Part shown: piece after piece, positions 2,265 to 22,207 of the stretch | Position numbering within the stretch: the stretch's first letter is position 1 | Layout of the letters: every line of letters begins with the position of its first letter | Origin: Amoebophrya sp. A120 | Lineage: Eukaryota; Protista; Dinoflagellata | Direction of reading: 5' to 3' | Length of the DNA: 64,000 nucleotides | Assembly (NCBI GenBank): GCA_905178155.1 | Contig: CAJINV010000002.1 | Coordinates: 9,489,087-9,553,086 of the forward strand | Notes under the pieces: model-generated | Told to the model about the DNA's origin: nothing | Database searches by the model: none | The model's input: only the letters and a program-made list of their open reading frames with translations | Translations under genes and position numbers: made by a program

Positions 2265-4778
2265 TCAAAAGAGAAACTTTAGAAGTTTTGTCGACGACCT
2301 CCTACGTTGATTTGCCTCACGCGCGCTAATCTGCTTCATCGTATTCCCGTCTTCTACCTCGCTCTCCTCCACTGTGATATCCTCCAGAAACGCTCCGCCA
2401 CCCACGGTTGCACTCCCCTGCTGACTGAGTTCCTTCTGCGGCGAGCAGACCTTGACAAGCAGCTGCGACGTCTTTCGTGCGGCGGGAGCGAGCGTGCGTT
2501 TGTACAGCAACGGCACCAGCAAATCCCCCGTAAAGCTGACGACGAGAGTCAGAAAGGCGATAATGTATAGGCCGACCATGTGCCGCACCTGCATCTGCAT
2601 GCCGTTATCGCCGCCACCCGCGGTGGCAGCCGCGGTGGTGTCTGTCCCCTCGCTCCAGGCGTCTAGGTCAGGGACGGTCTTATCACGGTACCGCTCGTGC
2701 AAGTAGAAAAAATCGCCCTGGTCGTACAGCCGCGCGCTCAGGTAACTGTAGGAAAGGGCGATGTCCCGGCTGACCGGCGTCGCCACGCCCATGGGCAGAA
2801 CGGGCGGCCCCACGACAATGAGATCGTGATCGACCAGAAACTTCTGAAAATCTTCCCGCGCGCGCACGTCGTGCTCCGGCAGCAGCACCCCGTCGCAGCG
2901 CCGCAACACCATGCCTTGCATGGTCTGCTTGCTCCCGGGAAACACGAGCAGCGACAAGGCGGGATGCACCGCGTGCACGGCCTTCGCCACGTGCGTGGCC
3001 ACGCAGACCCGCCGGCAGGCGTCCTCCCCGTCGTAGATCGCCGGATCGCTCCTACCAGCCGCCGTGTTGTCCTCCACACTGTCCGCCAGCACTGACCCGG
3101 GCGCAAACCGGCCGCGCGCGTAGCACTTCGTGATATCGGTCACGCCGCAGTGCCGTGTGTGCTCGAGCATCAGGTTGGAGGCCAGATTCGCCGTGTAGGA
3201 GGTGATCGTGACGAAAATGATACAGGCAAGCAGGTACTTCACCGTACGCCCCTTGAACGTCGTGCACTTGTGGGGCACGTCCAAGTCCAACACCAGCAGC
3301 CCATAAAGCGACAGGTAGACGGAGGTGCAGAGTGCAAAAAATGCAGTCTTGCGCCGTTCCGCGCTGCACCTTTCATATCCAAAACAGAGACGACCGAGAA
3401 CCGTCTTCTCCGGGTCGTCGTGAGGAAGTTGCTTATATGCGTCGCTTGAAGGGCCGCCCGCACCTGGGGTTTGATTAGCAACCGACCCAGAGCTCTTATC
3501 CTGCGACGCCGTTCCGGCGTCGCTGCCGTTGCCGCGGACGTCGCAGTGGTGGTCCCGTCTCTCACTCTTGCTTTCCTCCTCAGCCCATATAATACTGCAT
3601 TTTTGTTCTTCTTGCGGAAGAGTTGGTGTACAAACATCGTTTTTGTCTGCACAGTTTTGATGATGTTGAAGGTCTGGCTCACTGTGCTCCTCGGAAACGC
3701 AGGCCGGACCCTCAACGAGCACGAGCAGAAGCCCACCCCCCACGCAGATGAAAAATGTTGCCAACCACAGCGTGGGTGAGAAGGGCGAGAACACGCCGAA
3801 CCATTGGGTCGGGTCCGACCAGAAGCTGCGCCTCTTGTACCGCCGCACGAGAAGGCGCTGGTCGCCGTTCAACAGAGGCTGTGTAAATGCGGTCATCGCG
3901 CGTCGGTTGTCCACCAACCAAGCCGCCGTGGGACACACGTCGATCACCCCCATCTGCACATCGTGAATGCACGCGTCCCAGGCCGATTTAAAGGTTTCCC
4001 GGGAAAACGCGGTCAGGCTGCTTCTAGATGTACTAGTTCCCGCACCGGTCGTGGACGCCGTTGCACGATTCGGCGCGAAGACCTGTGTCGTTCCTGCGTG
4101 CGTCACCTCCCGGAGCGAGAATCCGCCCTCGATCGAGATGGCGCGCAGATAATCCGCCATCAGTCCCGTCCAACGCCCCGTCGAGTCCCGCCAGTGCCAG
4201 GGCTTCGATTCGGCCGGAAACGCGAACCGCAGGGTGCGGCCCTGGAGCCCGGTGGAAACCACGGTTTGGTGGAACGCCATGCCAAATTGGAGGCTGCCAT
4301 CCGCAGTAAAGATTGAGTCGGTCTTCACGACAGCTGCAGAGGTAAATGACCCATCGTTTATCTCAGGAGAGGCCGCCGCGGCTAAGCAGGTGTCGTACGA
4401 GTAAACTCGGCCCTTGAAGTACTCACTCGGGTAGCGGCTTACGCCTCGACAGGCGTCCGCATCGACGTAGCACCACGGCTGCGCGCACGAAGCCGCCACG
4501 GAAGACGTGGTGTGGTCACTCGTACCAGGCAACCCAGTGCCGGAGGTGGTGCTGCTCGTACGGCAGTAGGGAGGCAGCTCCGCGTCCCAGGCGGTTCCAC
4601 ATTTTGCGCCGTAGGCCTGCGGATACTTAAAGACACCCAGTGCCGTTGGCGCGAGCAGAAAGGTCCCCAGCAGATAACTGCCGCCCTCAAACAAACCTGA
4701 ATTTGTGCCAGCTTCGGTCGTGGTAAGAACCTGAGTGAATCGCCCACCGACGCAAGGGCATAGGCTGGTGCCATTCAT
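2265..4778 (-). CDS. Ionotropic glutamate receptor-like ligand-gated channel with N-terminal Cys-rich module
   Basis: 837-aa ORF: PBP-like S1 (RRAMTAFTQPLL), M1 (FSPFSPTLWLAT), M3 TSYTANLASNL (cf. SYTANLAAFL), S2, C-terminal M4; N-terminal CAQPWCYVD..YSYDTC module. The start may lie further upstream. Confidence 0.85.
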   Translation of the reverse strand: MNGTSLCPCVGGRFTQVLTTTEAGTNSGLFEGGSYLLGTFLLAPTALGVFKYPQAYGAKCGTAWDAELPPYCRTSSTTSGTGLPGTSDHTTSSVAASCAQPWCYVDADACRGVSRYPSEYFKGRVYSYDTCLAAAASPEINDGSFTSAAVVKTDSIFTADGSLQFGMAFHQTVVSTGLQGRTLRFAFPAESKPWHWRDSTGRWTGLMADYLRAISIEGGFSLREVTHAGTTQVFAPNRATASTTGAGTSTSRSSLTAFSRETFKSAWDACIHDVQMGVIDVCPTAAWLVDNRRAMTAFTQPLLNGDQRLLVRRYKRRSFWSDPTQWFGVFSPFSPTLWLATFFICVGGGLLLVLVEGPACVSEEHSEPDLQHHQNCADKNDVCTPTLPQEEQKCSIIWAEEESKSERRDHHCDVRGNGSDAGTASQDKSSGSVANQTPGAGGPSSDAYKQLPHDDPEKTVLGRLCFGYERCSAERRKTAFFALCTSVYLSLYGLLVLDLDVPHKCTTFKGRTVKYLLACIIFVTITSYTANLASNLMLEHTRHCGVTDITKCYARGRFAPGSVLADSVEDNTAAGRSDPAIYDGEDACRRVCVATHVAKAVHAVHPALSLLVFPGSKQTMQGMVLRRCDGVLLPEHDVRAREDFQKFLVDHDLIVVGPPVLPMGVATPVSRDIALSYSYLSARLYDQGDFFYLHERYRDKTVPDLDAWSEGTDTTAAATAGGGDNGMQMQVRHMVGLYIIAFLTLVVSFTGDLLVPLLYKRTLAPAARKTSQLLVKVCSPQKELSQQGSATVGGGAFLEDITVEESEVEDGNTMKQISAREANQRRRSSTKLLKFLF

Positions 4779-5770
4779 TGCACAAGAATGAATTTGTTTC
4801 AGCGGCCCGAAGTAGTACGTAGGACCTCAAATGACAGAAGTATCGTGCTATACACACGATGCTGCGACAAAAACTACGACGCAGTAGTAGTACTACAGTC
4901 TTGATCTGACCTCTTGTTGTTGACGTACGTTCATAGGACTTTCTTCAAAGCTGCTCTCTTCGGCAAGTACGACTCCGTATGTTTTCCCACTCAGAACCAG
5001 CAGCCTATGTCTCTTGGACCTCTCTAGATTTGGAATAGTACTAACACGAACGGCAGCTGCAAAAGCAAAGATGCGGAAGCTTTTAGAAAGGACAGAACGA
5101 TGTGGACCTCCTATACAACACAAATAGTTCAACGCAAACGAACCGTGCGGACCACGTCTGTGAAAGTTTCTTGATGTTTTCCATGTGTAGATGCAGGCGG
5201 TTTGGTCATGTTCATGCGTGTTCATCCTCGGGGGAGCATGCAACTCTGACTAGACTCAGTGCAGAGTTCGAGCATGCAATGCCATCGAGGTTTCCTATGG
5301 GTGACGAGCGTTAGCAAGACCTCCTGAGACCCAGCTTTCTACAAACAAGGTCCAAGAAATATTTCTTGTTGTGAAGATAAATCGAAAATTGCATAGGTTT
5401 CTTTTATAATCGAGCTTTATTCTCTATCTCCGAGAAAGGCCTTTCCTTTTACCTGGGGAGACTCACGAGAGCTATTAAGAACTTTTGGGTTGCGAAGAAA
5501 GAAATCACACTACACTATACGGGTAACTCTGAGCATGTAAAAATGATTTGACAGAAATGACAATGTATCGGAAAAGAACATAGGTCGAACTTCGGGTGTC
5601 ATGTGCCAAGAAAATACCGTCCTGCCACACGTCCAATGCGCAGGACTTGCTAGCGCGAAAAAGACTCTTTTCCGCAAGAGCAACATAGCACAAAGAAAAA
5701 TCACTGTCACAAGGTCTACTTCTGCCATCGACTGAAAGCGAAGTCAAAATCGATAGGACCCGCAGCCCAT

Positions 5771-6660
5771 TCACTGCCCCGGCTCTTTCCCCGTACAGAG
5801 GCGGTACACGAGGTCGCCGACTGTTCCCCCGTCTTGCTGCATCAGACTGGTGCCCACGAGGAAGCAGTCGATGAGCCCGCAGTCCGCTTTGGTCTGTACC
5901 ATCTCGGAGTGTGCCTTGATCCCACTGAAAGAGACCAGCTTCACGTCGACCTGCCCGTATTTCCCGGCCTGTTTTGTCTGTCCCAGGAAGGATCCCACCT
6001 TGGAGGTGGTCTTTAGATCGATTTGGAAGGTTTTCAAGTTCCGGTTGTTGACGCCAATGACGATTTTTTTCTGCTTCGCCTTTTCGCACGCCTCCAGCGC
6101 AAGTTGCATTTCCGCGACGTTGTTCACTTCCAGAATCGGCTCTACCTTGTACTTTTCCACCGCTAGCTTGATCATCTCCGCGAGCGGCTTCTCGAAAAAC
6201 CCGTTTTCGGCTGTGACGCCGTCAGCCGCAACCGCGAGGCTGACAATGAGCAAAACCGCGTCCGCGTTGTTTTCCCTCGCGCGGGCCAGCGAGCGCTCGG
6301 TCAGAAAGAAGTCCTTCATGAGCACCGGCGGACGGGATTGCGGCGAAGTTGTAGCTTCTTTCTGTTTGGTACGTGCAGCGAGGTCGCCTAACGTTTGCTG
6401 CGCTTCCTGGGAGTACTTTTCTGCCCCGTTGAAGAAGCAGGGCTCGGTGAGGATTGAGACCGCGGGAAAGAAGTCAAACGAGTTGTTTGGCAAGCCCTCA
6501 CAGTACCTCCGCAAGAACCTGCTCACAGTCGTGCATCCGTCCTGGCGATCGTAGTGACCGATTTTCACGGACGGGGTTTGCAACTTCACTTCCGGAATGA
6601 CGAAGAAGCTGCTGTCAGGTTTCTTACGGCTGTCGATTCGAGAAAAGATCGATGCGACGT
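5771..6660 (-). CDS. trpC: Indole-3-glycerol-phosphate synthase domain (C-terminus of fusion; bounds approximate)
   Basis: VIPEVKLQTPS, SILTEPCFFNG, PVLMKDFF, ADAVLLIV, PILEV, GVNNRNLKTF, FLVGTSLM. Confidence 0.9.
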
Positions 6661-9600
6661 TTACTTCTTGTTGGCGCGAGGATAAATTTTCCTTAGTGCC
6701 GGAAGGAGCTGTCAACGATGGGTCTTTTGTTTTCTGCATGGAGATATTGACAGACGCATCAGAGATTTTATTTTCTATCTGATTCACGACCCCGAACGCT
6801 CTTTGCTCCACCTCGTCCCGAATGAGTGTGTATTTGCAGATGCGGTCGACCAGACCCGCGTCCTTGTGCTTCGCGCTGTGAGTCCCGACGAAGTTCGTGG
6901 CCCAGATGAATTTGTGCAGCAAAAAAAGCGGGTTTCCGTCTTGATCCTCCGGCTCCGTGGCCGGTCGGGGCTGCAGCAACGAGAGGCACTTTTCCGTGCA
7001 GGCCTTCAGCCAGGCTCTGGATTGGGCAGGCGAAAACGCCTGCAGTACGTGGGGGGCTCGGTCCAAAAACAAAACCAACGCCGCGTTCATGGCGGTAAAG
7101 TTGCGCAAGTTCTCGAAATGCTTCTTCTTCTTTTCCAGCAGTTTCGCCTCCCGCCGAAACAGCGTCAGCATATTGATCGCGTTTTCTCTTTTCTCGTTCA
7201 CAGCATTTTGGTCTACTGCGGTTGTACCAGCCGCAGTTGTTCCTCCAGCTCTCGGCTGTATTAAACCGGTCAGCGAGTACACTTCTTCCGCTGTGCTCCC
7301 CTTAACACCAAAGTCTTCGCAAGTGAGAGTCATCGGCTGTGGCAACCGCTTCTCCCCCTCGTCTTCCCGCGGGAACACCACCTGGACCGTTTGCTTCACG
7401 CCCGCTACCGGTGTGGCTTTGTCCACCCCGTCGGTCGTGTGGATGACTATGAGCTTTTTCGGCAGAGTGGTCGAGCTGTGCTGTGCCCCCTTGGAAAACA
7501 CGAGCGCGTAGGCCCGGGCGACCAAGCTGCTGTGCGCGCCCAACACGGACACCTCCAACTCGCAGGGGTTTACGATCGGGCCGAGGTAGTTGAACAGGGT
7601 CGGCGACTTCCTCCGCGCCGTTTTGGCGGCTCGCAGCTTGGAGTACTTCGCGCGCAGCGGTCCGAACTTCTTCAGGATCGGAAAGAACTGGCGGGCAAAC
7701 ACGAAGGAGAAGTTTTCCGTCTCGTGCAGCACTTTGTCCACGTTCTCGAAACTGTCGATCGCGGTCAAGTGGGCGCCCAGACTCTCCAGCAGGTCCGCCG
7801 CCCCGCTGCCCGCAGCCGTGGACGCTACGTTACCGTACTTCAGCATTTTGATCCCGAGGGAATCTTTACGGTCGAAGGCGGCGGCGGCGAGAATGCAGGC
7901 GGGCGTGGAGATGTTGTGCGGATTCAGGAGATCTCCCCCCGTCCCGACGATGCACCCCATGACGAAATCGCGATTCATGTTCTTCGTTTTGTCAAACTTG
8001 TAGTTGCTCTTCGCCACCTTTTTCGCTTCTTGCAGCAGAATCTCCCGGCAAACAAAGAGCAGGTCCGCGAGCTTCTGGGCGTACTGCTCAGTCTCCTCCG
8101 CCGTCCGAACTTCCTCGTATTCCACGAACGTTTTGGAAAATTTTGTGAAGAAGGAAAAGATTTTCGCCTCCACGAGCGGATTTTCCGCGATCAGCTGCGG
8201 GTCCGAGTGAATCAGAAACGTTTCCGCGGCCTTGTAGAGCTGGTCAGTTGTGATTTCTCTTGTTTCAGCTTCTTCACCTAAATGAGCAAACTCATTCCCG
8301 GTTGCAGGAGTTCTTCCAGACGTGCAACTGATGAACTGCTCCATCAAGTCTATCGCGTCCACCAGTTCAAGCATGTGGGTTTGTTTGCTGATGGTTTGCT
8401 GGTCCTTGTCTCCGCGACCGGACAGATTGATGATCAGGTGCTGACTGCTGTCCATACTTGCTGCCTTCTTCATCGCGCCGGCCACCGCGTGCGCGGTTTC
8501 CAGCGCGCACAGGATCCCCTCGGTTTTCGCGAGTTTCTGGTAGGCCCGCAAGGCTTCCAAATCCGAGATCGACATGTAGTTCGCGCGGCCGGTGACGGAC
8601 AAGAAGCTGTGGATCGGCGACACGCCGGTGTAGTCCAGCCCGGCGGACACGGAGTGCGAGCTCCCGGACTGTCCCCCGTTGGTCTGCAGCATCAGGTTCG
8701 TCGAGCCGTGGAGGATCCCGACCGTGCCGTCGGGGCCGGAAATGGACGCGGAGTGGACTACTTTGTTGTCGTCGAGAAATTCGTTGTTCTCCTCCAGAAA
8801 CCCGCCGGCTTCCACGCCGAGCAACTCGACCCCCTCGTCCCCGACGAACGCGTCGAACATGCCGATGCAGTTGCTGCCCCCGCCGACGCAGCCGACCACG
8901 CAGTTGGGGAGCTTCTTCTCGCTGTCGAAGAACTGCTTCCGCGCCTCCCGCCCGATGCAGGCCTGGGCCTCCCGCACGATGTAGGGGAAGGGGGCGGGGC
9001 CGATGCAGGAGCCGATCACGTAATGCGTGGACTCAATGTTCGACGCCCAGTCCCGCATCGTTTGGTTGACCGCGTTCCGCAGGGTTTTCGACCCGATCTC
9101 CACGGGGACCACCTTCGCGCCCATGGACTCGATCTATGACAGTGCACAACCCCCCCTCCCCCTTATTTGTAATGCAAAATCCCAAATCCAGCTTGAGCTG
9201 CTGCTTCGTAGCGCTGTTTGCATGACAAATCCTGGAAGCCCAAACAGCACTACACTACAGTCCAAATTTGTCATGCTTAACAGACATTCTTGCTCATGCT
9301 TGTATTGCTGTCCATGCCATACAAATGCGGGGGAGGGGGAGTTGTGCACTGTCATACGATCCGCTGCACATTCAGCTGTTGCCGCCGCGCGTCCTTGCCG
9401 CCCATGTAGATCGTGCAGGGCAGGTTCATATGGATTGCAAAAATGTCTGGGTCTGGAAGGTTGGAACTTGTGATGCTACCTTTGGACTCTAAAAAATTCT
9501 ATATTGCATGACCAGCAAGAGGAGTCCGGTTTGTGCTACGCGTGGAGGGCATTTGTCATGCGGAAGAGGCATCAGGAAGGCCTCTGAAAATCTGTGATGC

Positions 9601-12600
9601 TAGGGCTTCCATGACAGACATTCCGTGTCATGCAAAAACAGCATAACAAATTTCGGATTCTTCCAGACCCCGACATTTTTACATTTGATAGTTCAGGTAC
9701 GCGCAGCACACCGCGGTGGCCACGCCGTGCTGCCCCGCGCCGGTCTCCGCGATGATCCGGGTCTTGCCCATGCGCTTGGCCAGAATCGTCTGGAAGATCG
9801 CGTTGTTGATCTTGTGCGCGCCGGTGTGCAGCAGGTCCTCGCGCTTCAGCCAGATCGTCGCGCCGTTGAGGCGGGCCTTGTCACTATCCCTGCCGGACCG
9901 CTGCACCAAGTGGCGGACAAACTTGGTCAGGTTTTCCGCCCTGTACAGGCCCGTCGGCCGCGCGGCGATCTTCTGGTAGAGAAAATCGATCTCCTTCCAG
10001 AACGAGGGCTGACTATACACCTTCACGAACTCCCTCTGCAGCTGCTCGCACGCCCGGCGAATCAGCTGCGAAACCCAGGCGCCGCCGAAGAACCCGTAGA
10101 ACATGGGGATCCTCTGTGGTTTGCAAATGCGGGTCAAGGCCCGGATGCGGAGTTGCGACTTCAAGTGTTTCTTGTGTTGCTCAATCGGTTCCGCAATTTC
10201 GTACGCTTTCAGCGAGACGCTGTACGTGTCGATACTAGCAGCTGTCGTGGCTGCATTTGGACTCTGTCTCTGAGTGAAGCACTGCTCCGCGCCGGACGCG
10301 ACGTCGAACGCGAGACTGCAGCCTGTCGCAGCCATGAATTCCCTCACGTCGCTGTTTTCTAACAATCCCTCCCTTAAACCATTCAGATTCTCCGGACACA
10401 GCCCGCCGGCCACGAAGAGTTGCTTCTGCGGGACAACACGACGCGCTTCCACTCCTGTTGCCCCGGTGGTGGACGAAACCAGCTTTTTGCAGAACTGAGG
10501 CACCACACTGGCCGCTTCCCACGTGAGTCCGTTGCCCCCAAGCGAGCTTCCCTTCTTGCAGTCGAGCAGCAGACCGGTAATAACTTTATTCGAGGGAAGC
10601 AGCAGCTTGGAGCAGCTCTCGACCGTGGTGGCTTGCAGAATGGTTTCCGTGCTATCGAACGCGAAAGCGATAAGAAACTTGCGCGAAGATGTTCCCACTC
10701 CCTGCTGTGCGAGCTGTTGTAAAAAGGCAGCGTCCTGGAAAACCTCCGCCACACACTTCACCATCTCCGTCGTTCCGCCGCAGTGCAACTGGATCACGTC
10801 GGGAGGGAGTTTCAAGACTGCAAGCTTCGACACTTGCTTCAGGATTTCTTCCTTCACCGCGTTGAAAATAGTTTTTTTACCACCAGAGATCACGACAGCC
10901 GCTCCACTCGGCTCCGGCACGACCAACAGCGCCACCGACTTGGGGTTATAGCTGTGGTAGTTGCAGTTTTGGATCAAACTGAACATGTCCGCAATTTTGT
11001 TCAGAGACTCCTGCTCGCCATCGTTCCCAAACGCGTTGTCGTGGCCATACACGTAGCGTGGGGACTTCTCGTAGAAGTTGAACCCGAAAAAATCCACGCC
11101 GTCCGAGAGGGACGCGATAACTTCCTCCCGGTTCGTGTAGCCGCACACCTTCAACGGGGTGATCGTTTGCTCCGGAGGTTTATTTGCGCTCGTCAGTTGT
11201 CTGTTTCTACTACTTCGCTGGTGGCTGGATGGGTGTACTACCGGGACCATGTTTTTCTTGTTGTCAGTAAAAGCCGATTTGCACTTTGCGGCGTCAAAAT
11301 TTTCGTACAGGTTCTTCACCATTTCACTGTATTCCTTATCCGTAGCCACGCCTGACTCCCCGAGCGCGATCGCCTTTCGCAAGTACTGCGTCCCGATCAC
11401 CGCGGCGTTCGGAATCTTCTCGTACGCCGCTCGACACAGGTTCACATCCGACCCGTTTGTGATGCCGAAGCCCATCAAGAGGAAAAATCCGTGCTGCTGA
11501 AGCGTTTTCAAGTGGTTTTGGTAACGCGTCTTCACGATTTTGTCCTCGATCTCGAACTTGTTCTTCGCGCTTTTCGTTGGCATCGTGGACGTAGTGGCAC
11601 CTGAAAGAGAGATTTTCGTTTTAATAAATGTCGATGTGGCAGCACCTACTTAACTATACGATTCAAAAAAATTAGTAGACCGCTTGTTGTTCGGTGACGG
11701 TGACCCTTGCTGGCGCTTGCGATGAGAACCTCCTGGAACTACGCTGCATCACATTCAAAAGAAGACCGTCGTGAAAATCATTCTCAATGACCAGAACTAA
11801 AATTATCTACGTCATTTTTCAAAACAAAACCTGTAAATGAGCAGTACCTGTGACCCCCATGTAGGTTGTCGCGTAGATGATTGGCCTTTTCAGAACGGGG
11901 TCCGCTTGTTCCACTCCTGCACCTTCTGCACCCACAGTGCCTTGCAGTTCCACCATTTCGCACAACTCTTGCACCACGTGCTCCTCGACGTTTTCGGAGA
12001 GAACCGGGATTAAGGACAAGCCTGCCTTCCGAAACACGTTGTTCAGGTTTCCGACGTGCAAACAATCCGCCGTCATGTCCACCACGATCACGTGACGGAT
12101 GCCGAGCTGGACTGCCCGCGTGCCCCACTGGTCCCGAAATTCGAACTCCCCGGACACCGGCGACACCTGGAAGAAGGTGTTCAAGTACCCCATCAAAATG
12201 ACCGGGAGGGAGAAGTTCCGCGTCTTTTGCGCCTCCTCGATCAAGTCCAACACCGCGTGGATGCTGTGGATTCGCTGCTCCTGCAAACACACCCGGTAGC
12301 ACTCCTCGATGACCGGGCCGTCCGCGAAGGGGTCGGAAAACGGCACGCCGACCTCGATCGCATCCACCTTCTTCGAGTTTTGGATGCCGACCAAGCTGTT
12401 GATAAACTGCTCCTTGTTCGGATACCCAGCGCACGTGAAAACGAAATTGCAGAAGTCGTTGCTTTCCAGTTTCCGGAAGTACGACGGCGTGGCGGCGTGG
12501 GAGCGGGACTGCGGATGATTATCCAGCTTCCGGCGCTTCTTCAAGTTGATAGCGTCAATACTATTTTCATCCAAGTCACCTGTTCTTGCAAGAAGTTCGA

Positions 12601-15600
12601 CATCGACCATTTCCGCGTCTACCACCGCTCCACTATCATTAGCACTGCTGACTACGTCCACAGATGCGGACGCCGACAGCTCGGCGTCCTTCCCGAAGCC
12701 GTGGACGAGGAGGAAATTGTACAGCATTTCGTGTCCGCGCTCCGTGCCAATCGACTCGGGGTGGAACTGAACACCGTAAATCGGCAGGTGCTTGTGCTCC
12801 ACGGCCAGCACCACTTGCTTTTCCGAATCCGAGACTGCGGTACAACGCAGGTGCTTGTTTTTCCGCAACTGCTCCTTGTTCGCGACAATGGAATGGTACC
12901 GCATCACTTTCACGTCGTCGTTGTTCCAGTTGTTCGGGTCGTGCTTTTGACTCATCATATCATCCTGAGCCGCTGTCGAGCTTCCTGTTCCCGGTATTGA
13001 ATAGCTACGCGGGAACAGCGGATTGGAGTAGTTCGATTTTGAAACCACTTCGCTAAAGACCATTTTCGACGGCTTTCCGTGGTAAATTTCCTCTTTACAA
13101 ACCTCCGTCGCGCAGCCGAAGTACTCACAGAGCGTCTGGTGGCCCAGACAGATCCCTAAGAGCGGGATTTTCCACTTGACCGCAAAGTCGATGACGGGAT
13201 ACAGCACGTCCTTCACCTCCTTCGGCGATTTCGGGCCCGGGCCCAGCACGATGTGCGAAATGTAGGAAAAGCTGTCCGCGGGGCCTCTCCCCGTCCTGAA
13301 CGTGCTGGCCGAGTTGTCGAAATTTTCCAGGTTCTCCAAAAAAGAATTCGACTCAAATTGCTCGTCCCAGTACTTGATCAGCTTCATCAGATCCGGGTCG
13401 TCGTTGCGAGTCACCTGGATCGACGCCTTGTAGTAGTTCTCAGAATTTGAAGATGATACTTTCCCAATTTCTTCTGCTTTCTCCGCGTCGCACTGATTGG
13501 CGATGTGCGAAATGATCTCACTGAAGTACTGGTAGATGTTGTAGGTGAACGAGTCGTAGTTGTCGACCAACAGAATTTTGTGGTTCTGCTTCCTGTTCTC
13601 CAACGGCCGGGTTAAGGGGAGGTGCGACACCAGGCTGGAAGCGGTGCGGTTGGGTTTTTGGGCGGTGGAGGTGGACGACGTGTTTTTACTTTTATTTTCG
13701 CCAACAAGTTGATGCGCACGTCGCTCGGTCATAATTTTTGCGGTCGTGTGACTTTGCTTCTTCCCCTCCTCTTCTTTTCGCATTTCCTGGAGTCTTTCCT
13801 CGACCATGGTTTCCAGTCGCGCCGTCCCGTAACTCGACCGCGCACCGTAGTCGATTTCGCGGCCCTCGGACATTTGGAGAATTTTTTGCGAAGTAGAAGA
13901 TGAGGAGGACATTTTTTTCATCTCCGCTGCACCGGCCAGCTGCAACAAAGCAGACCCGGGCAGGGAAAGGAGATTTTTGTTCTTGTTGTTCCCGGTGGAT
14001 GCGCTCATCAATCCCTGTTCTGCCTGCTTGATCGCGGATTTCAAAACGTTCATTTTGAAGCCGGTTTCTTCATACTCGGAGGTCGGGTCGCTGTCGAACA
14101 CGATTCCCGCGCCGGCTTGCAGCTGCACCTGGTTTAACGGTACTGAAGACCGACTCTCATCATGATCCGGTGCCTTGGTCACGATGGCGGTGCGGATGGC
14201 GATACAGGTTTCGGTCGTCAACCCATCGTAGTTGAAAAATCCGAGGCCCCCGGCGAACACCCCGCGCGGGCGGTACCGCTCCATTTCCATGATATCCTTC
14301 ACGGCTTGGATTTTCGGCGCCCCGGACACCGTGCCCATCGGGAACACCGCCTTCATGACCTGCAGAGCGGGGACGTCCGGCAGCTTGCCGTCGGCAGTAC
14401 AACCGGACAACTGCAAAGGCACTTGGTGCTGGGTCGGCTTCGCGCGGCCAGGAGCAGCTTGTGCTTGTTGTAGTCCACCTCCGGGAAATAAAGAAGTCAT
14501 TTTTCCTCTCTCTTCTTCGTACTTTTTCTTCGCCCGAAACTCCTTTTTCCTTGTCTGGAATTTGGACACCGCCGCAGCCAGGTCCTTCAACATTTTCTCG
14601 GTCTGCTCCAGATCCACACAGCCGTCGGTCACACTCACGCCATACTTCAGCTGCAGCTCCCCGGCCTTGTACTTCGCAACGTCCAGTTTCTGGTTCCCGC
14701 ACAGCAAATTCGACTCGATCATGACGCCGAGAATCGGCGGGAACACCGGCTCCTCCGCCTGCTCCGCCACGGTCTCGCCGACTACGGTCTCCAACACCTG
14801 GTCGCACAGATCCTTCAGAACCACGGGCTGCCGCGTGAAGTCTTTGTTCGCGTTCCCGTGCGAGCAGTCGATCAGCAGCTTTTTCGGCGCTTCCGGGACC
14901 AGTTTGGAAATGGCGTTCTTCACGTGCTCCCGGCTGTAGTTCGGCCCGTCCTTCCCGCCCCGCAGCACCACGTGCGCGTCGGGGTTGCCGTCCGTCTTGA
15001 ATACCCCGTAGATTTCCCCGATCGCGATCTGCGACCGGTTTTGCTTGATCTGCTGCAACTTCTGGGCTTTGGTCGACGAAGATGAAATCGCCGTGCGCGG
15101 CTCGACGGCACTGGAGGCGGAGGACGCGGACGAAGCAACGCCACTGTTGTTAGTTGTAGAACTGTCAAGACCGGATTGTTGTTCGAGAGAGGAATCATGA
15201 GCAGTTGTATGGCTGTTCACCTCGATCGGCGAGAGCAACATGCGATTCAGCTCCTCCTGGTCGGAATTGTCGCTCGCCGTGGTGATGGCCCCGCCAAACG
15301 CGTGCCCGAACGACTTCTCGTCCATCGGCCCCAGGATGCTGTAGGCCTTCCGCCCGGCGACCACGGCGTCGCAGGCCACCTGCACGTCCCCGCTGGTGCC
15401 GTTCTTGAAGCCGCAGGGCACGTTCTATCAAATGTAAAAATGTCTGGGTCTGGAAGAATGCAAGTTTGTCATGCTTGTCTGGCATGACTCTTAAATCTGT
15501 CATGCACGTTACCCAAGAGCTGCGTTTTTCTGTCATGCAGAAGCGCAGTTTGTCATGCAGAATAGGCAACACCTAGAAGCTCAGAAACTTGTCATGCTGA

Positions 15601-18600
15601 GCCAGCAATTGTGGCCTCCTCATGATATGCCACACAGCATCACAAGTTTCCAGACCCAGACATTCTTACATTTGATACGTTCGCCCCGGACACCATCTCG
15701 CGGTGCACCTGCGACTCGACGGTGCGCGCGCCGATCGCGCCCCAGGACACCAGGTCCGCGATGTACCGCGCGCACACGGGGTCCAAAAACTCCGTGGCGA
15801 CCGGTAGGTCAAAATGCTCCGTGATGTCCAGCATCAACGAGCGGGTCAGGTACAGGCCCTTCTGGATGTCGCAGCTGTCGTCCATGTTTGGGTCGTTCAC
15901 GTACCCCTTCCAGCCGACGGTCGACCGCGGCTTCTCGCCGTACACGCGCATCACGATCAACAACTCGTTCTCGTACTTCTTCGCCTCGTGCGCCAGGAAT
16001 TTGGCGTACTTCAGCGCCATGTCGTAGTCGTGGACGGAGCAGGGGCCGATCACCACCACCAGACGGTCCGGGTTGGGCCCCTTCTGGTGCAGAATCTCGT
16101 GGATCTCGGTATAACCTGCTCAGGCGTTACAATCTCAAACGTTACAATAGAATCTGGGATTTGTATTGCATGAGGAACATGACAGACTCGCAGAGCGTTC
16201 CACTTTCTGCAATACAAATTTCGCCAGATTCTAGTGCGGTTTGGGGCTCCGAAACTTGTCATGCGCAATCCTGTGGGACTAGGGTAGATCATGCACTTCC
16301 TGCATCACAGATTTCCAGATTCTATTGTAACGTTTGAGATTGTAACGTTTGAGCGGGCCATACTCGGTTTTCGCCGTGTTGTTCACGATTTTCGTCTATC
16401 AAATGTAAAAATGTCTGGGTCTGGAAGATTGCAACTTGTCATGCTGTTTTTGGACTCCAAAAAATTTCGTATTGCATGACCAGCAAGAGGGGCACACTTT
16501 GTGCTACACGGACAGGGCATTTCTCATGCGGAAGGTGCATCAGGAAGGCCTCTAAAAGTCTGCGATGCTACATCATGCATTACAGGCTTCATGGGTCATA
16601 AGAAATATGCATGACAAGTCTTGCATTCTTCCAGACCCAGACATTTTTACAATCCATATCGTCTTCTCGCTCGGCGGCAATAAATTCCGCAAGTGCCGGG
16701 GGAGCGGGAAAATTTTGCTCGGCTTGTAAGACAAAACGCGAGGTTTGAAGGGGAAGGAAAACCGAAACGTGCTGGACTGGAAGTTCGCGATTGTGTGATC
16801 CTTCGCCTTCGTGAGAGGCGTTTGCGGGGCGACGTTGAGCTTCCGCTTCTTCAAGGATGGCGTCTGGAACAGTAACTGGTAGTCCTCATCGTCGAGTGCT
16901 TTTCCGGAAAGCACAGAAAATTTGTTACTATTTCCTGCGGCCGATGACGTGTCCGCGACGAACCGGGCTTGCCGTTGCAGGTGCGCGCTGTCCTTGATGC
17001 CGCTGCTTCCCGCCGGACCCCCGGCGTGGATCTGACCCACGACTTTGGAGCACAGATGCATCACGTTCGGGAAAAATTTGATTTTCTGGAACTCCACGCA
17101 CTCCACGGAGCCGGGCTTCGCGATCTTGCCGATGTCGTTGCGGGCCAGGTCGACCAGCATGACGTGCTCCGCGAGCTCCTTCTCGTCGTGCAGCAGTCCG
17201 ATCGCGGTCTCCACGTCCTCTATGGATTGCAAATATGCCTGGGTCTGGAAACTTGTGATGCTGGGCGGCGTATCATGAGGGAGCCACAAGTGCTGGCTCA
17301 GCATGACAAGTTCCTGAGCTTCTAGGTGTTGCCTATTCTGCATGACAAAGTGCGTTTCTGCATGACAGAAAAGTGGGGCTCTTGAGTAGCGTACATGACA
17401 GATTTAAGAGTCATGCCAGACAAGCATGACAAACATGCACTCTTCCAGACCCAGACATTTTTGCATTTGATATCCTCCTTGTCGTCGAAGAACTTGGACC
17501 GCGGCCGCGTCCCGGCGATCGGGTGGGTGGTGATCTGTCCGGAGAAATCCACGGACACCTGCAGCTCCGGCGACGCGCCCACGATGAAGAAGTCGTCCAT
17601 CTTCAGCAGGTAGCGGTACTGCGTGGTCGGGGAAATTTTATTCAGCGCGTGGAAAATCATCCAGGCGTCCGCGCGGGTCTTCTTCTTCTCGATCCGACTG
17701 GGCACCGCCTGCAAAAAGTCGCCCCGGGTGACGCGGTGCTTCAACGTTTCCACGATTTTCTCAAACTCTTTCTGGGAGAAATTGGATTCGTAGTTCTCTT
17801 CCTCTTCGTACGTCATGGTCGAGAACGCGGAAGTTGCAGCGCCTGGTGCAGGGTGAGCGGAACTACCACCCGATGCGGTCGTTGTTGACCCCGCGAGCAG
17901 TAGTTCTTTCACGTCCTTTTCAAGCTCGTCCAATCTCGTCACCGCAGCGGCATAAGAATCCACGAATTGCTTCACATCGAAAATAGCACCACTTCCATTG
18001 TCTGATACTTCGCCCGTGGAAGAAGATCCTTGCCCCCGTCGTACTATCAGCTGCTGCTCCAACTCTTTGGAATGATTTACTTTCACCGTGGCGCACATCT
18101 TGATCCTCTTTCCCGCAACATCCAGTTCCAGAAACGAGTCGTACTGACACAAAATGGTCGTCGGACGCTCGGTATCAAATGCAAAAATGTCTGGGTCTGG
18201 AAGAATGCAAGTTTGTCATGCGTGTCTGGCATGACTCGAGAATCTGTGTTGCAGAGGCACGAAAAGGCCCTCTTATCTGTCACGCAAAAACGCACTTTGC
18301 CATGCGCAATACGTAAGACATGGCAGCCAAAAAATTTGTCATGCATAGCTGCGTATTGCAGTGCGTCTATCATTCTCTTGTAGCATTACAAGTTTCCAGA
18401 CCCAGACATTTTTGCATTTGATACTCGGCTTCCTTGTTGGCTGCTCTGGCGCTTTCCGCAGTAGATCTTTTTGCCTTGTGCTCCTCCAGCACCTTCGCCA
18501 ACGACGGTTCGACCTTGTGCATATTTTCGAACCCATAGTATCCAATATCCTATGTAAAAACGTACCCACCCCATAGTCAAGATGGGGAATTGGCTAGACA

Positions 18601-19518
18601 AATCCACAAGCTTTGGCTGTTTGGCATGACAAATTTGGACGCGTAGTGTAGTGCTGTTTGAGCTAGTTCAGCAGCATTACAGATCTAGTCTCTCATGCTG
18701 ATTGGAGCATGACAAATTTCAAAACACCATTAGAAAATGCTTCTCATGGGGCTCCGCATGAGGAACATTTTAAGCATGCAGAGTTGCATGACAACTATGG
18801 TGTGGGGACGTTTTTACACAGGATATCCAAGTAAGCCCCCACGGAACTTCTGCTGCACGGCGGAGGTTATCCAAAGTAAATTTCCCGTACACGTACAGAT
18901 GCGGTCTCTGCATGACAAAACTTGGCTTCGATCCTAGTTTAGCATGACAAGTAATACACTCCAAATTAGTGAAATTTGTGATGCACGTTGCACATGTACG
19001 GGAAATTTGTATTGCATAGAGGTAGCAGACGAAGTACCAGATGCACCGGTATAATCCTGTGTCGACCCGACCACGACTTCCGTGAGCCCGAGCCGCTGGT
19101 TCATCCACTCGCTGGGGTCCGCGCTGGACCGAAACAGGTCACAAGGCGTTTTGGCCACCAAAATTTTGTTGCCGCGGTCGCAACAAAAATACGCGTAGTA
19201 CTCCTGCGCATTATTTTCCACCGCCCCTTGTTCATCTTTTGTTCCACCAAACAGTCTCTCCGGCTGGGCGAGGCACCTCTGGAAAGTGACATGGTCAGAC
19301 ACCTCCACCTCTCGCTGCAGCAGAAAGTAAAACCCCTTGGGGTTCAACGCAGAACCGTGTGGAGTCGAGGCGGCGCTGCTGGTTGTAGTAACACCATCCG
19401 GACGGCAACTCTCGAAGTAACAGTCAACCGCCCGGATCACCTCGTGGACCGAGGCCTCCGACTTCGATATCTTAAACGCCATAGGGGAAGAAAAAGACGT
19501 CGATGCAACGTTGACCAT
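5771..19518 (-). CDS. Giant multifunctional aromatic biosynthesis polyprotein: TrpE(N)-DAHP synthase-TrpE(C)-TrpG-TrpA-TrpF-TrpB-TrpD-TrpC (~3,756 aa, 11 exons)
   Basis: Span 13,748 bp minus 9 introners (each +5-bp TSD) and one GT-AG intron (2,477 bp in total) = 11,271 nt = 3,757 codons. Each junction was translated by hand and is in frame (e.g. KFRGGLLGYYGFE, DDKEDVETAI, SEKTKIVNNTAKTEIHEIL, SGANVPCGFKNG, YMGVTGATTST, AYLNLPCTIYMG, VQRIESMGAKV). Confidence 0.9.
6890..7990 (-). CDS. trpD: Anthranilate phosphoribosyltransferase domain of fusion (approximate)
   Basis: IVGTGGD..NIST, KYGN..S..GSGAADLLE, TLFNYLGPIVNP, AMNAALVL. Confidence 0.88.
8370..10110 (-). CDS. trpB: Tryptophan synthase beta domain of fusion (two introners inside; approximate)
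   Basis: LKREDLLHTGAHKINN (PLP Lys), AETGAGQHGVATA, CVGGGSNCIG, SVSAGLDY, NLSGRGDKD. Confidence 0.96.
9135..9356. mobile_element. Introner (MITE-like intron), TIR type B, 222 bp
   Basis: TIR tatgacagtgcacaac.cccc; TSD cgatc at 9130-9134 and 9357-9361; removal gives VQRIESMG. Confidence 0.93.
9429..9690. mobile_element. Introner, TIR type A, 262 bp
   Basis: TIR tatggattgcaaaaatgtctgggtctggaag / cttccagaccccgacatttttacatttgata; TSD gttca; removal gives AYLNLPCTIY. Confidence 0.93.
10190..11160 (-). CDS. trpF: Phosphoribosylanthranilate isomerase domain of fusion (approximate)
   Basis: LKVCGYTN, FGFNFYEKSPRYV, IQLH, LLLDC..GGNG..W, FVAGGLCPEN, FDVASGAE. Confidence 0.9.
11300..12450 (-). CDS. 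trpA: Tryptophan synthase alpha domain of fusion (split by GT-AG intron; approximate)
   Basis: TCAGYP, IEVGVPFSDPFADGPVI, PVILMGYLN, YMGVTG, LMGFGI. Confidence 0.92.
11601..11847 (-). other. Canonical GT-AG intron (247 bp) in TrpA domain
   Basis: Minus strand ACAG|gtactg...ctctctttcag|GTGCC; joins ORFs 11819-15421 and 9679-11583 in frame. Confidence 0.85.
12710..13585 (-). CDS. trpG: Anthranilate synthase component II (glutamine amidotransferase) domain of fusion (approximate)
   Basis: ILLVDNYDSFTYNI, LGPGPKSP, LGICLGHQ, VMRYHS, GVQFHPES. Confidence 0.95.
14020..14375 (-). CDS. trpE: Anthranilate synthase component I, C-terminal part (after the DAHP synthase insertion)
   Basis: FPMGTVSGAPK, RGVFAGGLGF, CIAIRT, QAGAGIVFDSDPTSEYEET. 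Confidence 0.93.
14560..16740 (-). CDS. aroG: Class I-alpha DAHP synthase (AroF/G/H type) domain inserted in frame in TrpE; three introners inside (approximate)
   Basis: VIGPCSVHD, RVYGEKPRSTVGWKG, IGARTVESQVHRE, GFKNGT, LRGG, DCSHGNANK, GVMIES, YGVSVTDGC. Confidence 0.94.
15426..15677. mobile_element. Introner, TIR type A, 252 bp
   Basis: TIR tatcaaatgtaaaaatgtctgggtctggaa; TSD cgttc; reverse-orientation relative of 17221-17472 and 61079-61330. Confidence 0.93.
16110..16362. mobile_element. Introner, TIR type D, 253 bp
   Basis: ~48-bp TIR tat..cc.gctca..cgttacaatctcaaacgttacaatagaatctgg; TSD ctcgg. Confidence 0.92.
16397..16658. mobile_element. Introner, TIR type A, 262 bp
   Basis: TIR tatcaaatgtaaaaatgtctggg / cccagacatttttacaatccata; TSD tcgtc. 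Confidence 0.93.
17030..19518 (-). CDS. trpE: Anthranilate synthase component I, N-terminal and central part (four introners inside)
   Basis: FRGGLLGYYGFE, GDFLQAVPS, VGASPEL, HPIAGTRPR, DEKELAEHVMLVDLARNDIGK, VMHLCSKVVG. Confidence 0.92.
17221..17472. mobile_element. Introner, TIR type A, 252 bp
   Basis: TIR tatggattgcaaatatgcctgggtctggaa / ttccagacccagacatttttgcatttgata; TSD tcctc. Confidence 0.93.
18173..18423. mobile_element. Introner, TIR type A, 251 bp
   Basis: TIR tatcaaatgcaaaaatgtctgggtctggaa; TSD ctcgg. Confidence 0.93.
18546..18825. mobile_element. Introner, TIR type C, 280 bp
   Basis: TIR tatcct.tgtaaaaacgt.cccac.ccatagt; TSD tccaa. Confidence 0.92.
18868..19018. mobile_element. 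Introner, short TIR type G, 151 bp
   Basis: TIR tat.caa...aaatttcccgtaca; TSD gaggt; removal gives SATSAVQQKFRGG. Confidence 0.9.
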
Positions 19519-20680: not shown

Positions 20681-22147
20681 TCATGGGTCGGCACAACTCT
20701 GATGATCAGCATCCTGAACTTCATACATTTCTGCCCGCGTAACAATTTCGGAATTCATTCCTTCTGTATCGACAATCGTAAAGCGTGCGAAAAATGGATC
20801 GCAAATCGGCTCTGTGTAAATTCGAAACGGATCAGCTCCGCTCCTGTAACCCGGTGCCTCCCGTACTCCTTCGATGCTACTATCCACACCGACCGATTCC
20901 GCTGTGCTTATTCGGTCGTAAAGCAACCTCAGGAAGGACGTTGCTCTGCTTTTGTCTTCTCGTTCCGCTTGCGCGTGTCCTTCTGCGCCAGGTCGGCTGC
21001 GTTGGTGATCCACCGGATCACGCCCCCCGGCGAAGTCGGCTTCTAGGTTCATAGTAGTATTGTCGCGAGAAGAACAAGAACCGAGAGCCATATTTCCTCT
21101 TTCACTTTTCTCCACAACGGAGTTGTCCATTCTGGTTTTTTTCGCTTTAAGATGTTCTTCCTGGTCAGCCGGACCGAGTCCACTTCTATTGCAATCTCGC
21201 CGTAGATACCCCGGAAGCCAATGGCGCGCGTCAACCCACATTTTCGAAAAGATCGAGTCGTCGCGAGCTCTGCTTGGCGCTGAAGCAGGAGCATTTCGTG
21301 TGCTCGCTGGTCCCTCCACTGGGTCGGCTTTCATAACGCACTTCCCTCTTTCATCTTCTTCAAACCGCCCAATTTTGCCCAACTCAGTCGTCACGTCGAA
21401 CCACTGTGGTCGCATCTCGTCGCTCTCATGCGCCTCTAGCGTCTGCAAATCCGCTTCACTCCACCTGGCCTTTTCCACTCTGTTTTCGTTTCCCTGCCGC
21501 GAATCACCAGCATCGGAATCTTGAACTTGATCAACATCTGCATGATCAATGCGATACTCGAAAATGAAGATTTCCAAAATTTTCCGGCAACTTCTTTCCA
21601 CCTCTTGCCCCTTCTCGTACAGGTAGTCGACGTCTTGCCTCCCGACAAACCGCAATTCTGCAGCAACCTTTTCCTGCACAACTGAAACATTTACTTCCCC
21701 ACCTGTGCTTGTCCTCGTCCCTGCGGCGGGACATTCCACCAAAAGCGGTGAGCAGTCCGGGACATCGTCCAACACGGTGAGCAGCCCGGGACATTCCTCC
21801 AAAAGCTCCCGCGCTGCGCAGTCCCGGATCGTCCTGTCCTTGCCTTCCTCGAACTTGCCGCCGAAACCGTTCCATTTTCCCTTGCCGAAACCGCGCTTCT
21901 TGAAGCCGAGCAGAATTTTGTCCGAGCACTGCGTTTTCAAGCGCGGAAATACGAGGGAAAGCATTTTGCGCTTTACTTGCTGTGTACTGGCCTCGTCTTG
22001 CTCTGTCAGGCTGCAGCACGAAAGGGGTGCTGCTGCTACTTCCGGAGATGTCCGTTTCTCAGTGCGCCGCTCCATTTGTTGCCTGGCTGCGACAGTTGTC
22101 AAAGCGTCGCCCCCTGCCGCCAACATCGTTTCTGTTTCGTCTGGCAT
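20681..22147 (-). CDS. NUDT1: MTH1/NUDT1-like Nudix hydrolase (oxidized purine nucleoside triphosphatase) with long insertions
   Basis: [33 protein letters not shown] Nudix box, [20 protein letters not shown], all resembling MTH1. Confidence 0.88.
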
Positions 22148-22207
22148 AATGTTGTGCGATTACTTTGGTGTACAACTGGATTGTCTTTGTTCCCACACCT
22201 CAAACTA

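Follow-up and report, generated by a model that had tools for sequence, protein, structure and literature searches.

A predicted single-chain tryptophan pathway in Amoebophrya sp. A120 with a DAHP synthase nested in TrpE

The stretch analyzed here, a 64,000-nucleotide window on contig CAJINV010000002.1 of the dinoflagellate Amoebophrya sp. A120, a marine parasite of algae, contains aroG-trp, a multidomain gene in which a 3-deoxy-D-arabinoheptulosonate 7-phosphate (DAHP) synthase interrupts TrpE and is followed by TrpG, TrpA, TrpF, TrpB, TrpD and TrpC. The gene occupies positions 5771..19518 of the minus strand, from a predicted ATG at 19518 to a TGA at 5771-5773. Removal of its 10 introns joins 11 exons into one frame of 11,271 nt whose sole stop lies at the end, encoding 3,756 residues with a computed mass of 412.7 kDa. 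A sequence-only reading of the same DNA had proposed exactly this frame, and its figures are reproduced with no internal stop: the one-frame gene is real and correctly delimited. Its product is probably a single enzyme of ∼413 kDa that would catalyze every step of the route between chorismate and tryptophan and, in addition, make DAHP, with the fusion serving co-expression and without a channel from DAHP to tryptophan. The AroG-trp fusion itself is already known from the sister strain Amoebophrya ceratii AT5.2 (gene g13589, 2019).

A DAHP synthase inside TrpE

Pfam analysis of the exon open reading frames (ORFs) gives the order TrpE N half, DAHP synthase, TrpE C half, G, A, F, B, D, C. Chorismate_bind appears as profile positions 2-97 and 99-165, followed by DAHP_synth_1 in two pieces, Chorismate_bind 161-257, and then GATase, Trp_syntA, PRAI, PALP, Glycos_transf_3 and IGPS. 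Because Chorismate_bind lies on both sides of DAHP_synth_1, the DAHP synthase lies inside TrpE. The eight domains and core catalytic motifs listed by the sequence-only reading are all present; its order, TrpE and then DAHP synthase, names two domains that are both there and overlooks the most unusual trait of the gene, that the second interrupts the first. The interrupted region is organized as follows:

17029..19518, minus strand: N-terminal half of TrpE, aa 1-512 (Chorismate_bind 2-97 and 99-165; PDB TrpE matches, E 4e-11)
16717..17028, minus strand: linker 1, aa 513-616, weakly conserved (low confidence in the ortholog model; no usable Atlas feature match)
14558..16716, minus strand: type I-alpha (AroF/G/H-like) DAHP synthase in TrpE, aa ∼617-1075 (TIGR00034 348.3 bits against a cut-off of 173.2; PDB 3tqk, E 1.2e-88)
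14009..14383, minus strand: C-terminal half of TrpE, aa ∼1134-1258 (Chorismate_bind 161-257; aligns with 1qdl 321-419 and 1i1q 410-513)

The insertion is clean at the profile level: TIGR00564 positions 66-352 precede the insert and 353-379 follow it, which are consecutive, and the C half begins at Salmonella TrpE residue 410 in the alignment to 1i1q. The insert comprises ∼620 residues, with linkers of ∼100 and ∼60 residues flanking the barrel. Both borders fall within genomic ORFs (16573-17403 and 11819-15424) and neither has an intron, so the nesting is independent of the splice model.

Both partners retain their catalytic signatures. In TrpE, E466, H503, R1197, E1239 and K1243 are kept, the last two aligning with E498 and K502 of 1i1q; we take E466 and E1239 to be the Mg-binding Glu pair and H503, R1197 and K1243 to be active-site residues. 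A120 and AT5.2 share the two Mg ligands, the His, Arg and Lys, and the PIAGT Ala. This Ala distinguishes anthranilate synthase from PabB, in which the motif reads PIKGT and provides a catalytic Lys. Together with the structural model described below, these residues make anthranilate synthase activity of the interrupted TrpE likely. The DAHP synthase domain keeps C667, H975, E1023 and D1053 (the Cys/His/Glu/Asp metal ligands) as well as K703 and R705 of the KPR(S/T) motif.

The regulatory sites, by comparison of alignments, are altered in both. Tryptophan feedback on TrpE acts through the LLES and NPSPYM motifs, which are not recognizable in the TrpE of A120, of g13589 or of the uninterrupted relative P0279: the segment is deleted or replaced, and the Met position is Arg. 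In type I-alpha DAHP synthases the feedback site is formed by the N-terminal tail and the beta-6a/6b hairpin. Here the hairpin carries a low-complexity insert of ∼110 residues, the N-terminal tail is the linker, and PQY has become ARY.

The fold was modeled with AlphaFold2 on residues 220-1305 of the ortholog g13589, not on A120 itself, from 27 alignment rows that included the public A120 protein P0006 and 25 G-E fusion proteins, mostly of the PabB type; the alignment has a gap over the insert, and only two rows cover the DAHP barrel. The TrpE blocks on either side of the insert reach a predicted local distance difference test score (pLDDT) of 80-94. Aligned with VIA-align to single TrpE chains, residues 15-1085 of the model match 1qdl at Z 38.9 (root-mean-square deviation 2.6, 376 aa, 36% identity), and the model matches 5cwa at Z 36.5 (422 aa) and 1i1q at Z 34.1 (419 aa); PabB chains reach Z ∼41, which the choice of alignment would lead one to expect, and Foldseek aligned the N half alone. 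The two halves are thus predicted to refold as one chorismate-binding (MST) domain, with the DAHP barrel looped out.

Downstream of TrpE, the chain continues with six domains:

12707..13585, minus strand: TrpG glutamine amidotransferase, aa ∼1400-1692 (Pfam GATase, E 1e-31; Cys1545, His1674, Glu1676)
11296..12469, minus strand: TrpA, aa ∼1772-2080 (Pfam Trp_syntA, E 2.8e-23, 82.6 against a cut-off of 27; Glu1810, Asp1821)
10216..11160, minus strand: TrpF, phosphoribosylanthranilate isomerase (PRAI), aa ∼2126-2440, divergent (Cys2131, Asp2325)
8387..10128, minus strand: TrpB, aa ∼2470-2885 (TIGR00263 489.4 bits against a cut-off of 392.45; pyridoxal phosphate-binding Lys2575)
6962..8074, minus strand: TrpD anthranilate phosphoribosyltransferase, aa ∼2990-3360 (Pfam Glycos_transf_3, E 7e-21, 75.4 against 27)
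5792..6664, minus strand: TrpC, indole-3-glycerol phosphate synthase (IGPS), aa ∼3460-3750 (Pfam IGPS, E 3.9e-26, 92.2 against 27; Glu3484, Lys3486, Lys3576, Glu3638)

The catalytic roles of the residues in all eight domains are presumed from their families. The Pfam check suggested by the sequence-only reading recovered every domain, with PRAI falling short of its cut-off (21.8 bits in A120 and 18.1 in g13589, against 22.7). PRAI nevertheless matches Thermotoga maritima PRAI (1dl3) at E 6.8e-6 with the catalytic Cys and Asp at matching positions, and scores E 5.5e-14 on its own profile of 7 relatives. TrpD keeps the GTGGD loop and reaches 99.7 on TIGR01245 against a cut-off of 199; in the alignment its Mg-binding DE is DK in A120, g13589, P0139, P0285 and P0286.

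Gene structure, transcripts and public models

The coding sequence is distributed over the following exons and introns:

19518-19024, 18867-18831, 18545-18429 and 18172-17478, minus strand: exons 1-4
17220-16664, 16396-16368, 16109-15683 and 15425-11848, minus strand: exons 5-8
11600-9696, 9428-9362 and 9134-5771, minus strand: exons 9-11
15426-15682, 16110-16367, 16397-16663, 17221-17477, 18173-18428, 18546-18830 and 18868-19023, minus strand: seven introners on the 5' side (from the frame; none among the RNA joints listed)
11601-11847, minus strand: canonical GT-AG intron in TrpA, 247 nt (247-nt skip in X1 and X3, CT..AC on the plus strand)
9429-9695, minus strand: introner 9, 267 nt (267-nt skip in X1 and X3 contigs)
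9135-9361, minus strand: introner 10, 227 nt (227-nt skip in X1 and X3 contigs)
5181..5770, minus strand: 3' untranslated region, ∼590 nt (X1 and X3 contigs end at 5182 and 5181)

Nine of the 10 introns are TAT...ATA inverted-repeat introners flanked by a 5-nt direct repeat, and one is GT-AG. Excision was modeled to leave one copy of the direct repeat, by which the borders may slide. The repeats are found in 9/9 elements and removal is seen in contigs for 2/9. When each intron was kept in turn, a stop appeared by aa 183-2639 in 10/10 cases, and all 10 introns therefore need splicing. GT-AG readings of the introners were rejected: none fits 4/9, and the contigs over intron 10 show a precise 227-nt removal, not the GT-AG form. 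Introners that have terminal inverted repeats and whose exon borders are covered by direct repeats of 3-5 nt, together with non-canonical splicing, are described for Amoebophrya (Farhat et al. 2021, PMC7789003); those of aroG-trp match the description and add nothing new to it. The whole window holds 21 TAT...ATA elements with 5-nt repeats, 9 of them inside aroG-trp; the 12 further introner-like elements lie at 23509-61330, several as close pairs. The elements at 15426 and 17221 are inverted relative to each other and 90% identical.

Four sequencing runs were compared. Contig sets X1 and X3 come from one study and two samples, and their RNA nature is a guess; they are argued to be transcripts because the GT-AG intron is missing from them and depth is ∼1-2 upstream of aroG-trp against 19 inside it. 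One X1 record of 7,168 nt agrees letter for letter with 5182-13090 (TrpG to TrpC) apart from skips of 227, 267 and 247 nt, and the X3 contigs show the identical three joints. Other X1 records, at depth 4-7, cover 13073-14297, 14348-14758, 14758-15386, 15677-16104 and 17528-17837. In the raw-read runs X9 and X10 nothing but introner repeats was matched (by 142 and 166 reads, all in part), which leaves them uninformative for aroG-trp. Listed joints number 15 of 25, none of them in the 5' part of the gene. Overall, 3/10 junctions are supported by X1/X3 contigs, 3 more are crossed exactly by P0006, and the first 4 are placed by frame and by homology across the joints. As for cDNA junctions that might break the frame between domains, named earlier as a refuting outcome, the 3 contig joints run exactly as modeled, and the other 7 have no RNA joint listed.

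Two public proteins labeled Amoebophrya sp. A120 cover most of the model exactly: P0006, marked 'partial', corresponds to aa 530-1161 and P0001 to aa 1149-3756. They overlap by 13 residues in the same frame within one stop-free exon, and the public annotation therefore splits one gene in two. Neither holds a whole TrpE, and the first 529 residues of the model are missing from the annotation.

Ortholog, sister fusion and relatives

AT5.2 carries the same gene. John et al. (2019, PMC6482013) reported a fusion of AroG with a multifunctional tryptophan gene, g13589, which PCR with genomic DNA and cDNA confirmed, and the Pfam row given there reads Chorismate_bind 431-602, DAHP 734-1121, Chorismate_bind 1178-1290. 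It is an ortholog with the same nine-block order, the DAHP synthase inside Chorismate_bind and the same upstream NUDIX neighbor, and is ∼46% identical to the A120 model over three long blocks. It differs in strain, in having its own introners, and in a gene model that lacks the TrpG start and is apparently merged with the upstream NUDIX gene. In A120 the NUDIX hydrolase is a syntenic ORF (20681-22159, minus strand) matching the N-terminal NUDIX of g13589 at E 2e-29; as part of the A120 protein it was rejected, since it forms an ORF of its own that ends in a stop 1.16 kb upstream, with a depth of ∼1-2 in between. The NUDIX portion of g13589 is therefore likely a merged neighbor. The sole g13589 primer pair of PMC6482013, labeled 'chorismate binding DAHP (aroG)', is located at aa 457 (TrpE-N) and aa 1260 (TrpE-C), a span of 2,427 nt over the insert, so the reported cDNA PCR would span it.

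The precedent of a trp-aroG gene in Amoebophrya ceratii, named in the sequence-only reading, is thus borne out by g13589. The text and tables of PMC6482013, in the portions available, leave several features undescribed: the nesting of the DAHP synthase in TrpE in both strains, with the predicted refolding of the TrpE halves (Fig. 2 may draw the layout); the presence in this gene of TrpE and TrpF, which the paper placed elsewhere or left blank; a TrpE without Trp-feedback motifs; a second DAHP synthase, in fusion with prephenate dehydratase and a weak chorismate mutase-like domain; and the uninterrupted E-G-A-F-B-D-C and A-F-B-D-C relatives, with the nearest intact TrpE-G in giant-virus contigs. 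A literature search that reached few subscription papers brought up none that describes a nested tryptophan form or one with the complete pathway (Fig. 2A of PMC6482013 may show the layout), and tryptophan and shikimate go unmentioned in the accessible main text of PMC7789003.

The sister fusion lies outside the window and has the layout prephenate dehydratase (PDT)-(chorismate mutase (CM)-like)-DAHP synthase in A120 (P0007), AT5.2 (P0008) and a transcriptome record (P0310); an ACT domain was not detected in these three proteins. The Trp-fused and Phe-fused Amoebophrya DAHP synthases group together, on long branches, with SH-aLRT 99 in a quick tree that took in 60 of 135 rows and 99 in FastTree. 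With this second copy fused to prephenate dehydratase, each branch would therefore have its own entry enzyme. The middle domain of P0007 is helical with a weak AroQ-gamma likeness (NF006741 E 0.001, TIGR01806 E 0.047, far below cut-offs); Atlas gives 0.84, a lead only, and the model has a pLDDT of 41. By eye, equivalents of R49, K60, A105, K106, Q109 and R134 are present, and those of D69 and R72 are absent. The fusion may be the source of the chorismate mutase that Table S5 of PMC6482013 gives as missing. Like the bacterial AroF/AroG/AroH isozymes, Amoebophrya has one DAHP synthase per aromatic branch, built on the type I-alpha barrel with all metal and substrate residues kept. Unlike these isozymes and the DAHP synthase-chorismate mutase fusions or complexes, it apparently dedicates each to its branch by fusion, and the partner is interrupted, not appended. 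That the DAHP domain came from a virus is not supported: in FastTree, 45 DAHP ORFs taken from loci of the viral collection lie apart from the group formed by Amoebophrya. Type I-alpha DAHP synthases themselves occur in many giant-virus metagenome-assembled genome (MAG) and viral contigs (L001-L080; 108/124 pattern matches confirmed), and P0225 (649 aa) is a DAHP-CM-PDT fusion.

Uninterrupted relatives share the domain order. P0139 (2,214 aa, a EukProt transcriptome record) and P0284/P0306 (2,250-2,251 aa) are E-G-A-F-B-D-C proteins with an intact TrpE; they differ from the Amoebophrya protein in lacking the DAHP synthase and in having another TrpE type. The five-domain A-F-B-D-C proteins P0285, P0286 and P0287 (the last two from Paulinella micropora and P. 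chromatophora) match the last five domains in order and share the DK in TrpD, but lack TrpE, TrpG and DAHP synthase. The E-G-D-C-F-B proteins P0003/P0004 (∼2,100 aa) likewise fuse Trp enzymes, with an intact TrpE and without TrpA and DAHP synthase. Euglena gracilis reportedly has a tryptophan enzyme with five activities. The partial fusions of fungi and algae, TrpG-C-F, TrpA-B, TrpE-G and IGPS-PRAI, join subsets on one chain in other orders, and only partial Trp fusions are known in alveolates according to the part of PMC3942023 consulted. The earlier statement that fungi fuse only subsets is correct in that partial fusions are known, and understates how far fusion goes elsewhere, as the E-G-A-F-B-D-C, A-F-B-D-C and E-G-D-C-F-B proteins exist. 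Other large fusions are P0288-P0291, P0131, P0153 and P0154, including the C-F-B-A-like P0291 and E-G-C-F(-D) forms.

In trees of 15 (TrpB), 14 (TrpD) and 19 (TrpC) rows from homologue searches, with 9-12 near-identical Helicobacter-like rows and duplicates left out, P0139, P0284, P0285 and the two Paulinella proteins group with the Amoebophrya proteins (TrpB 95/98, TrpD 94/92, TrpC 80/83). For TrpE, a clade of P0139/P0284 with Amoebophrya is rejected in a 32-row tree (approximately unbiased test, p 0.009, with a long-branch caveat). The sister of Amoebophrya TrpE there is P0279, an intact 666-aa TrpE-G (99/99), which for TrpG, too, is the closest row outside Amoebophrya, there with no starred support. 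A genome scan with P0279 yielded a single weak TrpG match. P0279-like genes (92%) occur on 2 MAG contigs of giant viruses and at 8 loci in metagenomes, where they adjoin a 1,224-aa TrpD-C-F-B gene and an intein-bearing helicase. The giant-virus MAG contigs (L082:1485-8016, also L083-L089; GC content 0.24-0.28), whose viral status is that of the record label and neighbors, thus encode TrpE-G and a divergent TrpD-C-F-B, six of the seven Trp domains; TrpA is absent from the available stretch of L082-L089. A literature search for giant virus, anthranilate synthase and tryptophan found no paper. The viral D-C-F-B protein was rejected as a member of the A-F-B-D-C group, falling outside it in the trees.

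DAHP synthase is joined to TrpE only in Amoebophrya records among the 150 best representatives and the 120 + 5 + 26 homologs listed, and 0/131 pattern matches to further nested DAHP-in-TrpE genes in metagenomes were confirmed. The simplest order of events would be an old A-F-B-D-C block, the addition of E-G, and then a DAHP synthase duplication with one copy entering TrpE before the strains split. The series A-F-B-D-C, E-G-A-F-B-D-C, E(DAHP)-G-A-F-B-D-C illustrates this stepwise build-up.

Function and alternative readings

The best-supported reading of the fusion is that of a eukaryotic operon, in agreement with the operon-like, stoichiometry-fixing role suggested from the sequence at the outset. 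Expression of the Trp branch would bring along a dedicated DAHP synthase one-to-one and push carbon into the shikimate pathway; the copy fused to Phe-branch enzymes would play this part in phenylalanine synthesis. Six steps separate DAHP from chorismate. These reside on a separate AroB-A-K-D-E-C fusion protein (PMC6482013), to which DAHP would be released and from which it would come back as chorismate; a channel from the insert to TrpE is therefore not expected. The suggestion that the protein channels intermediates accordingly fails for the DAHP domain and appears plausible only for ammonia (TrpG to TrpE) and indole (TrpA to TrpB, which are separated by TrpF in the chain). Since TrpE has not conserved its classical Trp site, the level of expression, and not Trp feedback on TrpE, would likely set the flux. 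Oligomerization through TrpB and DAHP synthase domains is a property of these families, and the protein would be expected to oligomerize through both.

Several observations weigh against a single active enzyme. TrpE, TrpD and PRAI score under curated cut-offs; for TrpE, g13589 reaches 264.1 on TIGR00564 against 517.7, yet this is the best of the TrpE/PabB models (A120 was scanned in pieces). Four of the 10 junctions are backed neither by RNA nor by a public model, X1/X3 coverage of the 5' third is patchy, a contig over several domains is not proof of one molecule, and no full-length transcript or protein was seen among the X1/X3 contigs and public records. The DAHP barrel is poorly modeled (mean pLDDT 58.5 for the g13589 model), and the alignment behind it, of PabB type and gapped over the insert, steers the TrpE halves together. 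No A25 ortholog is among the homologue matches listed. Finally, Table S5 of PMC6482013, as far as available, assigns anthranilate synthase (EC 4.1.3.27) to another gene, g6970, and leaves PRAI blank.

The last point, the low TIGR00564 score and a ∼620-residue insert within a catalytic domain would fit a dead or dispensable TrpE, with anthranilate supplied by another gene and the protein acting as a DAHP synthase plus TrpD-C-F-A-B with a vestigial TrpE. This is improbable: both Mg ligands, the His, Arg and Lys, and the PIAGT Ala are retained in two strains, the halves are predicted to refold, and the TrpG triad is intact. It is also improbable that processing separates the activities, whether by alternative splicing that drops the DAHP segment or by cleavage of a polyprotein at the long low-complexity linkers. 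Such processing could draw on 6 in-frame GT/AG pairs near the two insert borders, on the length of the linkers and on the non-canonical splicing of Amoebophrya (PMC7789003), and the joints listed are 15 of 25. Against it, none of these 15 skips the DAHP segment, depth over the DAHP region is like that of the TrpE flanks (4-7), the DAHP/TrpE-C border is bridged by one contig, the insert lies within the AT5.2 amplicon as designed, and excision of the DAHP domain would sever TrpE. Two or more neighboring genes, as the public A120 records imply with a partial P0006 and a P0001, are largely refuted by the 13-residue overlap of these models in one frame and one stop-free exon, by the lack of a whole TrpE in either, and by the ortholog being one gene.

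More deserving of attention, if still unlikely, is that the barrel, placed in a TrpE loop by the active-site strand, is a regulatory device coupling pathway entry to the Trp branch point and replacing the lost feedback sites: tryptophan, anthranilate or chorismate bound on one domain would switch the other. The insertion site is conserved in two strains merely 46% identical, as is a stretch ahead of the barrel; both classical sites are altered, the TrpE motifs being lost and the DAHP allosteric region carrying a long insert and changed residues; and DAHP synthase and chorismate mutase are known to be coupled by allostery from one enzyme to the other (PMC10520331). The linkers, by contrast, are long, divergent and of low confidence, and the Trp site is already missing in the uninterrupted P0279, so its loss predates the insertion. 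In a broader scheme, less likely than not, the AroF/G/H logic would have been rebuilt by fusion: of a duplicated DAHP synthase, one copy would sit, allosterically coupled, in a feedback-free TrpE of a kind shared with marine giant viruses and heading a seven-domain Trp protein, and the other would be fused to PDT and a hidden chorismate mutase, with three giant polypeptides carrying the whole of aromatic amino acid synthesis.

If the co-expressed single enzyme is correct, aroG-trp unites, naturally and on a single chain, a whole biosynthetic branch with the entry enzyme upstream of it, and is a clean example of one enzyme inside the catalytic domain of another, with a TrpE loop tolerating a 600-residue insert. 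It makes the role of pathway fusion (co-expression, channeling, allostery) testable. It also puts two public annotations right and, in the published picture of the parasite's independence from its algal host, supplies the 'missing' steps of anthranilate synthase and PRAI, and possibly of chorismate mutase.

Elsewhere in the window, an 853-aa ORF (2265-4826, minus strand) has weak Lig_chan and SBP_bac_3 matches and resembles an ionotropic glutamate receptor, and a CFAP43 coiled-coil exon lies at 54809-55621 (minus strand).

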